NCBI GenBank assembly: GCA_964016885.1
Contig: OZ024757.1
Location: 18,414,001-18,478,000, forward strand
Direction of reading: 5' to 3'
DNA length: 64,000 bases
From: Eledone cirrhosa
Lineage: Eukaryota
A program made the position numbers and the translations under genes. The notes under the pieces were generated by a model. It made no database searches. It had not been told where the DNA came from and was given only the letters and a program-made list of their open reading frames with translations. Positions within the stretch are counted from its first letter, which is position 1; each line of letters starts with the position of its first letter. This document shows positions 1,568 through 1,648 of the stretch, piece after piece.

Positions 1568-1648
1568 GCTCTACTGATGAACGGTTCAAAACGTGACTAA
1601 TCCTACTGAAAAGTTTCGTGAAATAGTCTTTTTAAGACTATATAGAGC
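1568..1648 (+). ncRNA. Type I hammerhead ribozyme with full stem III
   Basis: GCUCUA-CUGAUGA-ACG..CGU-GAAA-UAGUCUU uuu AAGACUA-UA-UAGAGC. All three helices pair; predicted cut after 1642. Confidence 0.9.

Follow-up and report, generated by a model that had tools for sequence, protein, structure and literature searches.

Metazoan non-LTR retrozymes (PMC7229834, bioRxiv 10.64898/2026.07.22.740005) are the closest described systems to the element analysed here. They carry one type I hammerhead ribozyme per low-GC, non-coding tandem unit, are dispersed as monomers, dimers and short multimers, and co-occur with Penelope elements. Their units span 150-450 bp in PMC7229834 and 51-972 bp in the bioRxiv study; stem III is 1-2 bp long, and in most metazoan circles the ribozyme is predicted to fold unhindered (PMC7229834). 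Hammerheads are also found in Penelope elements (PMC4209133, PMC8557442), where they lie near a fixed 3' end and accompany partial tandems, 5' truncation and a (TA)n bias. In animal Penelope hammerheads helix III is minimal or palindromic and the G10.1-C11.1 pair is conserved, and fungal and protist Penelope elements bear monomer-active variants with a large helix III, for which PMC4209133 describes no recognisable tertiary contact. In pseudoknotted hammerheads (PMC3088659) and in HDV-like type III motifs from toad and termite (PMC7936874), a Watson-Crick helix of about 4-6 bp joins the arms of stems I and II. PMC3088659 states that about 40% of its hammerheads use such a pseudoknot, a known tertiary contact that raises cutting rates.

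The window, a stretch of 64,000 nucleotides of Eledone cirrhosa DNA (contig OZ024757.1), contains a hammerhead whose repeat family shares the general organisation of the metazoan non-LTR retrozymes. Its unit of ~630 nt exceeds the range in PMC7229834 but lies within that of the bioRxiv study. By contrast, it has a 7-bp stem III and a loop II of 31-33 nt with predicted pairing to the 5' flank, both unlike the retrozymes described in PMC7229834, and in six circles modelled here the active fold was disfavoured by 4-14 kcal/mol. Proximity to a fixed 3' end, partial tandems, 5' truncation and (TA)n bias are shared with Penelope-element hammerheads, and the large helix III with their fungal and protist variants. 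However, the family has no reverse transcriptase frame, an inverted 5' arm is rare, neither the minimal or palindromic helix III nor the G10.1-C11.1 pair of the animal Penelope hammerheads is present, and a leader/loop II helix is predicted where the large-helix-III variants have no recognised contact. This helix links the stem I and stem II arms, as in the pseudoknotted hammerheads, but reaches 13-16 bp with a return linker of 13-15 nt, belongs to a repeat-borne animal type I motif and can be extended to a mutually exclusive hairpin. In the literature searched we found no cephalopod retrozyme family and no long leader/loop II retrozyme helix, although supplementary structure figures may hold similar motifs. 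Animal retrozymes are known as a class, and the covarying leader/loop II helix and the long stem III set this family apart. The reading that we favour, and consider moderately probable, is that the locus is a type I hammerhead in a truncated copy of a likely non-LTR retrozyme that is inserted into (TA)n by a Penelope-type reverse transcriptase, carries a leader/loop II helix and has a ribozyme able to act as a monomer.

The original prediction of a 6-bp stem I, a 7-bp stem III, an intact core and a ~33-nt loop II was confirmed by the sequence and by a descriptor scan (Table 1). A strict descriptor (stems I, II and III of at least 6, 3 and 7 pairs) matched once in the real window and never in 200 block-shuffled windows. 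The motif is a type I hammerhead, with a CUGANGA core, GAAA, an NUH triplet and three stems, stem I being open. The canonical metazoan type I features, namely a short helix III, a loop 1/loop 2 contact and G10.1-C11.1, are absent: pair 10.1-11.1 is A-U or U.U in the family and A-U in the window copy, and stem I lacks the internal loop through which loops I and II usually make contact. Rfam returned no hammerhead at the gathering score over the whole window, nor at E<=10 over positions 1-2200. Together with the AUA triplet, these deviations made the term "canonical" an overstatement. AUA is nevertheless a natural and active triplet, although a purified viroid ribozyme was slower with it than with GUC (PMC1636495).

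Table 1. Positions of the hammerhead, the repeat copy and the flanking features within the window.
Feature	Position	Strand	Description
(TA)n run at 5' junction	1522-1535	.	overlaps element end; sequence
5'-truncated repeat copy with one hammerhead	1532-1897	+	unit positions 265-630; 93.5% identity to natural full unit
Hypervariable spacer in 5' flank	1545-1552	+	82 distinct forms in 125 copies
Leader strand, predicted loop II partner	1550-1567	+	extra helix: pseudoknot or lock; duplex -12.1 kcal/mol
Stem I 5' strand	1568-1573	+	6 Watson-Crick pairs with 1643-1648 (descriptor scan)
Core CUGAUGA (C3-A9)	1574-1580	+	G5 = 1576; descriptor scan
Stem II 5' strand	1581-1584	+	pairs with 1616-1619: 3 pairs and G1584.U1616 wobble
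Hot spot	1584-1585	+	three states: AC 68, AT 39, GT 21; GC 2 (135 units)
Loop II	1585-1615	+	33 nt, or 31 if wobble G1584.U1616 is counted
Loop II part facing leader	about 1586-1602	+	predicted; remaining loop = linker
Stem II 3' strand and GAAA (G12-A15.1)	1616-1623	+	stem strand 1617-1619, GAAA 1620-1623; descriptor scan
Stem III	1624-1630/1634-1640	+	7 pairs, 3-nt UUU loop; descriptor scan
U16.1 and A17	1641-1642	+	predicted cut 3' of 1642, AUA triplet; from hammerhead numbering
Stem I 3' strand	1643-1648	+	descriptor scan
(TA)n run after fixed family 3' end	1898-1934	.	TRF, 18.5 copies

The modelled stem III formed with a pairing probability of 0.97-0.99 in four of five constructs and 0.87 in the remaining one. 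Because this stem is stable, the ribozyme would work as a monomer. The claim that stem III dispenses with the usual dimer requirement is supported: the stem is constant in a sister lineage although the length of loop III varies there, and in fungal Penelope elements hammerheads with a large helix III cleave in monomeric form (PMC4209133). We regard monomer self-cleavage by the ribozyme as plausible. The contrast drawn with minimal neighbours was also borne out, as each of the five neighbouring hammerheads that we modelled has one stem III pair beyond A15.1-U16.1.

Other hammerheads and elements were observed in the window. At 26428-26779, two inverted arms of 164 bp, 99% complementary and 24 nt apart, carry one hammerhead each (26471-26535 on the minus strand and 26672-26736 on the plus strand), with a palindromic 6-nt stem/loop III, in a Penelope-type mirror layout; a 22-bp tandem array of 81 copies lies beside them (24399-26173). 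The same family of palindromic-stem-III hammerheads, with a very long stem I, is found at 38408-38473 (-), 50701-50765 (+) and about 1110-1185 (-), and the stem II junction of the hammerhead near 1175 (-) is broken. A canonical small type I hammerhead, with G10.1-C11.1, a 5-bp stem II, GUC and a minimal stem III, is located at about 63735-63775 (+). Facing CUGAUGA cores at 10185 (+) and 10310 (-) have partial hammerhead features and incomplete descriptors. Broken open frames at 43389-45124 (+) and 62438-62812 (-), the former followed by a 231-bp tandem of four copies (46063-47001), look like fragments of non-LTR reverse transcriptases.

The copy at 1532-1897 is the sole member of its family within the window. 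A homology search with positions 1530-1700 against the host genome, which is 3.0 Gb in size and rich in microsatellites, gave 1,909 candidates, 40 of which were scored and showed 92-100% identity. The unit of ~630 bp is arranged in tandem, head to tail, in arrays of 2-8 units, and monomers measure 621-629 nt with 31-33% GC. In one natural unit the longest ATG frame codes for 24 aa in sense and 50 aa in antisense, and an antisense frame of ~120 aa from stop to stop is present in some copies. Exact genome matches numbered 306 for a 29-mer spanning stems III/I of lineage A, 2,143 for a 20-mer of lineage B and 638 for the unit junction, with 0 matches for each reversed-pattern control; the genome holds at least 2,400 ribozyme copies. 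With a hammerhead in each tandem unit, no long ATG frame and low GC, the family can be classed as a likely non-LTR retrozyme. Lineage A, the older one, includes the window copy (mean divergence of the lineage from its majority sequence 3.2%). Since it lacks unit positions 1-264 and has a single ribozyme, it could be cut if transcribed, and no unit-length circle would be possible. A tRNA-derived SINE was considered and rejected on the ground that no tRNA-like head was detected, either by ARAGORN (0 genes in seven of seven loci) or by Rfam (no tRNA match at E<=10), although a decayed head could escape detection. No contig of RNA runs X1 and X2 (word shares 0.04-0.05, contigs only) matched the element, which is no proof of absence; runs X3, X4 and X6, whose kind is unrecorded, contain the family, and X7 does so in one 151-nt contig.

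A variant at 1643, common in contigs of another sequencing run, led us to lineage B, which is the larger lineage and 75-88% identical to lineage A. Its 3' end lies about 260 nt past the cut, as in lineage A, its arrays reach 8 units, and the units of its main sub-lineage are 97-100% alike. Of 115 lineage A copies, 97 had an intact core (66 both core and stems), as did 36 of 37 lineage B insertions; N7 was the sole core position with shared variants and is free to vary between the lineages. While the stems of lineage A are nearly invariant, pair I.1 changed from A-U in 114/115 lineage A copies to G-C in 36/37 lineage B insertions, and pair II.2 from C-G in lineage A to U-A in many lineage B copies. 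Stem III is invariant and so provides no covariation, yet the length of its loop differs in lineage B. These stem changes represent few evolutionary events, yet they are located where the hammerhead predicts. Columns with variants in at least three loci were also rarer in the core and stems (1/41) than elsewhere (47/369, p=0.03), in a sample partly picked by likeness to the hammerhead region and with thresholds of 2, 4 and 5 not reaching significance. At loci L223 and L249, a lineage B variant lacking one base between core and stem II, and predicted to fold poorly, has been amplified as an 8-unit array.

The feature that most distinguishes the family is the predicted helix between loop II and the 5' leader. 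In the window copy, 53 of 2000 shuffles gave an equally good leader 1550-1567/loop II duplex, and rare changes at 1588 and 1591 perfect the pairing. When the 571 18-mers of a natural unit were compared as partners for loop II, the best all lay just upstream of stem I; the top one, with -18.2 kcal/mol, was the flank that starts 31 nt and ends 13 nt upstream of the core. Pair-preserving changes in the helix comprise two two-sided and two one-sided ones. In lineage A (n=115-117), U298-A322 was U-A in 105 copies and A-U in 5, U283-A333 was U-A in 100 and A-U in 10, and G285-U331 was G.U in 88, A-U in 13 and G-C in 12, with the pair broken in 2; 17 copies had a broken U284-A332. In lineage B, the four pairs nearest stem I were kept in 33-37 of 37 insertions despite a changed flank, and the flank/loop duplexes beat shuffles in all six copies tested (0-15 of 500 as good). 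Swapping flank and loop between subfamilies revealed no subfamily-specific matching. Every compensatory change probably arose once, within a single subfamily, and paired changes could also come about without selection if an inverted repeat were copied by folding back on itself. Overall, the pairing is a probable pseudoknot. As such, a helix of 13-16 bp with a 13-15-nt linker could be compatible with the active core, whereas an inward extension over stems I/II together with an outward one to the loop end would be expected to exclude the active fold.

Two side observations concern loop II itself. Through two rare changes, positions 1584-1592 of the window copy alone resemble the sequence that we take to be the Pol III B box consensus, probably by chance because the family does not match. 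An 11-bp loop II motif (1594-1604) recurs once near the unit start (unit positions 46 and 326 of L002).

Folding energies bear on how well this particular copy would perform, which had been put forward as the best single test candidate. In the transcript 1545-1670, which is a fair construct because it includes the leader, the active fold lay 9.9 kcal/mol above the ensemble when folded without pseudoknots, ranking 32nd of the 35 intact family copies (median 4.3); with a rough pseudoknot energy term, a hand-made estimate, the copy ranked 32nd of 66. The five neighbouring hammerheads had active-fold penalties of 5.4-7.5 kcal/mol, below that of the window copy, so the model charges every hammerhead several kcal/mol. 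In lineage B (57 copies, slightly shorter span) the median penalty was 2.7 and the best 0.6 kcal/mol, and the younger copies scored 0.6-1.0; L017, L242, L243 and L330 are natural copies with better predicted folds. By these models the window copy is an average-to-poor test candidate, and that part of the original prediction was not supported.

The same energies raise the possibility of a different role for the helix. In this reading, which we consider unlikely but the strongest of the alternatives, the retrozyme is the same and the helix is a lock that forms first in transcription, extends into stems I/II and keeps most ribozymes uncut; circles or multimers would then be protected as templates. 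The position of the strongest loop II partner in the upstream flank agrees with a lock. So does the effect of a longer flank, which raised the active-fold penalty in five of the seven copies modelled (from 2.1 to 10.1 kcal/mol in L007 and from 5.6 to 11.4 in the window copy), and circular monomers disfavoured the active fold by 4.0-14.3 kcal/mol in six of six models. Moreover, the distal segment would leave a linker of 5-7 nt, apparently too short for coexistence with stem II, and copies pass the cut site without a stop. However, no flank length raised the penalty to 1.5 kcal/mol in L017 or to 4 in L041, some subfamilies have a broken distal segment, and ViennaRNA cannot form pseudoknots and scores any leader/loop II helix as a competitor. 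Activation and locking may also be combined in a two-state switch, with the proximal 4-13 bp activating the monomer and the extension hairpin locking it, an idea that we put forward tentatively and consider unlikely. In viroids and plant retrozymes, the circular template is protected by self-pairing.

Returning to the favoured reading of a mobile retrozyme, the ends of the insertions inform how copies are made. A fixed 3' end with (TA)n after it was seen in 42/49 loci of one sample and 56/60 of another, and the fixed end, judged by eye, in about 35/37 lineage B insertions; 5' ends are scattered. Overlapping or locally duplicated loci were removed (11/60 in one set and 6/50 in the lineage B set), and a further set was deduplicated to 184 insertions. 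A 3'-end-anchored sample of 94 insertions, drawn from the first 100 of 536 matches, comprised 71 with one unit or less and 23 with two units, with TA runs upstream of 69 and downstream of 86. The fixed 3' end, 5' truncation, partial tandems and microsatellite target are Penelope-type traits. An inverted piece, typical of Penelope insertions but optional in PMC8557442 and PMC3846280, was present in 2 of the 94, one two-armed locus (L250) was found, and the 30-40-bp tail was not seen.

Among the insertions reaching the cut region, 53 of 55 continue through it, so the template was continuous there, either as a re-ligated circle or as an uncut multimer. We looked for a scar of cutting: no single-unit copy among the 94 insertions ends at the cut, and 2/55 insertions end within the 29 nt around and after it. 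An accumulation of 5' ends immediately past the cut (9/21, p=8e-5) was rejected as unproven after correction for window scanning (54/300), and it was not replicated (2/29; 5/31 in the last pass) in a junction-anchored sample without the lineage A insertions already used. Sister units within an insertion agree at 370 of 391 subfamily-allele sites, against 238 expected. Singleton counts gave no sign of A-to-I editing (A>G 28, T>C 49, as base counts predict, with no A>G strand bias). Two arrays have higher-order similarity among units, with period 3 in L249 (1528-6203) and period 2 in L251 (1143-4748), which points to multimeric templates or DNA-level duplication. Spacings of 1.4 kb in L091 turned out to be local duplications.

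Two sites that adjoin the leader/loop II helix, the hot spot at 1584-1585 and the spacer at 1545-1552, are unusually variable (Table 1). At the hot spot the GC state is in deficit (p=1e-6), and the site is unlinked to subfamily (mean r2 0.009 and 0.024, compared with 0.1-0.3 at most other diagnostic sites). Sister units differ there in 7/9 insertions, compared with 3.7% per site elsewhere, and in a second set 10/42 adjacent unit pairs were unlike (5.8% expected). The two-unit discordances of that set concentrate in lineages with CG in stem II (5/6). Clock-like DNA decay was rejected, as the state in lineage A is independent of private divergence (Kruskal p=0.47), but a fast DNA-level process remains conceivable because young lineage B arrays are mostly concordant. 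Either an error-prone RNA step or hairpin-directed DNA mutation may lie behind the hot spot and the spacer.

These results bear on a second alternative, in which the unit is a Penelope pLTR-like or SINE-like sequence copied from uncut, linear read-through transcripts of tandem master copies, with rare cutting, no circle and long arrays that arise partly by DNA-level duplication. The lack of a stop at the cut site would fit, as would the poor cutting of metazoan Penelope hammerheads in vitro (PMC4209133), and neither the period-2 and period-3 arrays nor the hot-spot discordance between sister units is expected from one repeatedly read monomeric circle. On the other hand, multimeric circles would also yield periodic arrays, core and stems are conserved with compensation between the two diverged lineages, and shared variants are rarer in core and stems, albeit in a partly likeness-chosen sample; we judge this alternative improbable. 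Still less probable, to the point of being very unlikely, is a mover that is a non-Penelope, microsatellite-targeting non-LTR retrotransposon: nearly all insertions are single-armed with simple 5' truncation, and the unit has no homology to the one Penelope family compared, but Penelope elements are described with partial tandems, (TA)n bias and a type I hammerhead close to a fixed 3' end (PMC8557442), some rotifer Penelope families have direct repeats only (PMC3846280), and the 5' junctions of the 184 insertions, save one related-flank pair, have no LINE-like sequence in common at a shared unit position.

In the favoured retrozyme reading, transcripts of tandem copies would be cut at AUA by a ribozyme acting as a monomer, with the Watson-Crick leader/loop II helix likely standing in for the customary contact between loops. 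Ligation would turn unit-length RNAs into circles, and on nicked (TA)n a Penelope-type enzyme would prime at the AU-rich end of the unit, which lies about 260 nt downstream of the cut. By passing the cut site, it would generate copies of 0.1 to 8 units. This cycle has been proposed for animal retrozymes in PMC7229834, PMC4209133, bioRxiv 10.64898/2026.07.22.740005 and PMC7761336; in the bioRxiv study, 8/9 predicted Xenopus retrozymes failed to cut in vitro.

Regarding a coding parent, none of 29 loci of one Penelope family, the only family compared, resembles the unit. We label this family Neptune-like on the basis of what we take to be its Cys-linker and GIY-YIG pattern. It has 7,857 candidates, several with open frames of 795-796 aa, and is a possible source of active enzyme. 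At L009, a young Neptune-like fragment (1819-2196, +) lies head to head with a family copy.

With its distance of 260 nt from the cut, the fixed 3' end would mark the starting point of the copying enzyme, and reading across the cut site shows a continuous template, a step proposed in retrozyme papers. The family is useful because its ribozyme should not require a partner and its leader/loop II helix covaries. How hammerheads within circular RNAs of animals escape self-cutting is left open in PMC7229834, and a helix that acts as lock or brace makes this question testable here. If the two-state switch were true, an animal retrozyme would shield its circular template by self-pairing, thousands of natural variants would record both states, and a reverse transcriptase crossing the structure would have left the hot spot at the helix junction as a scar.
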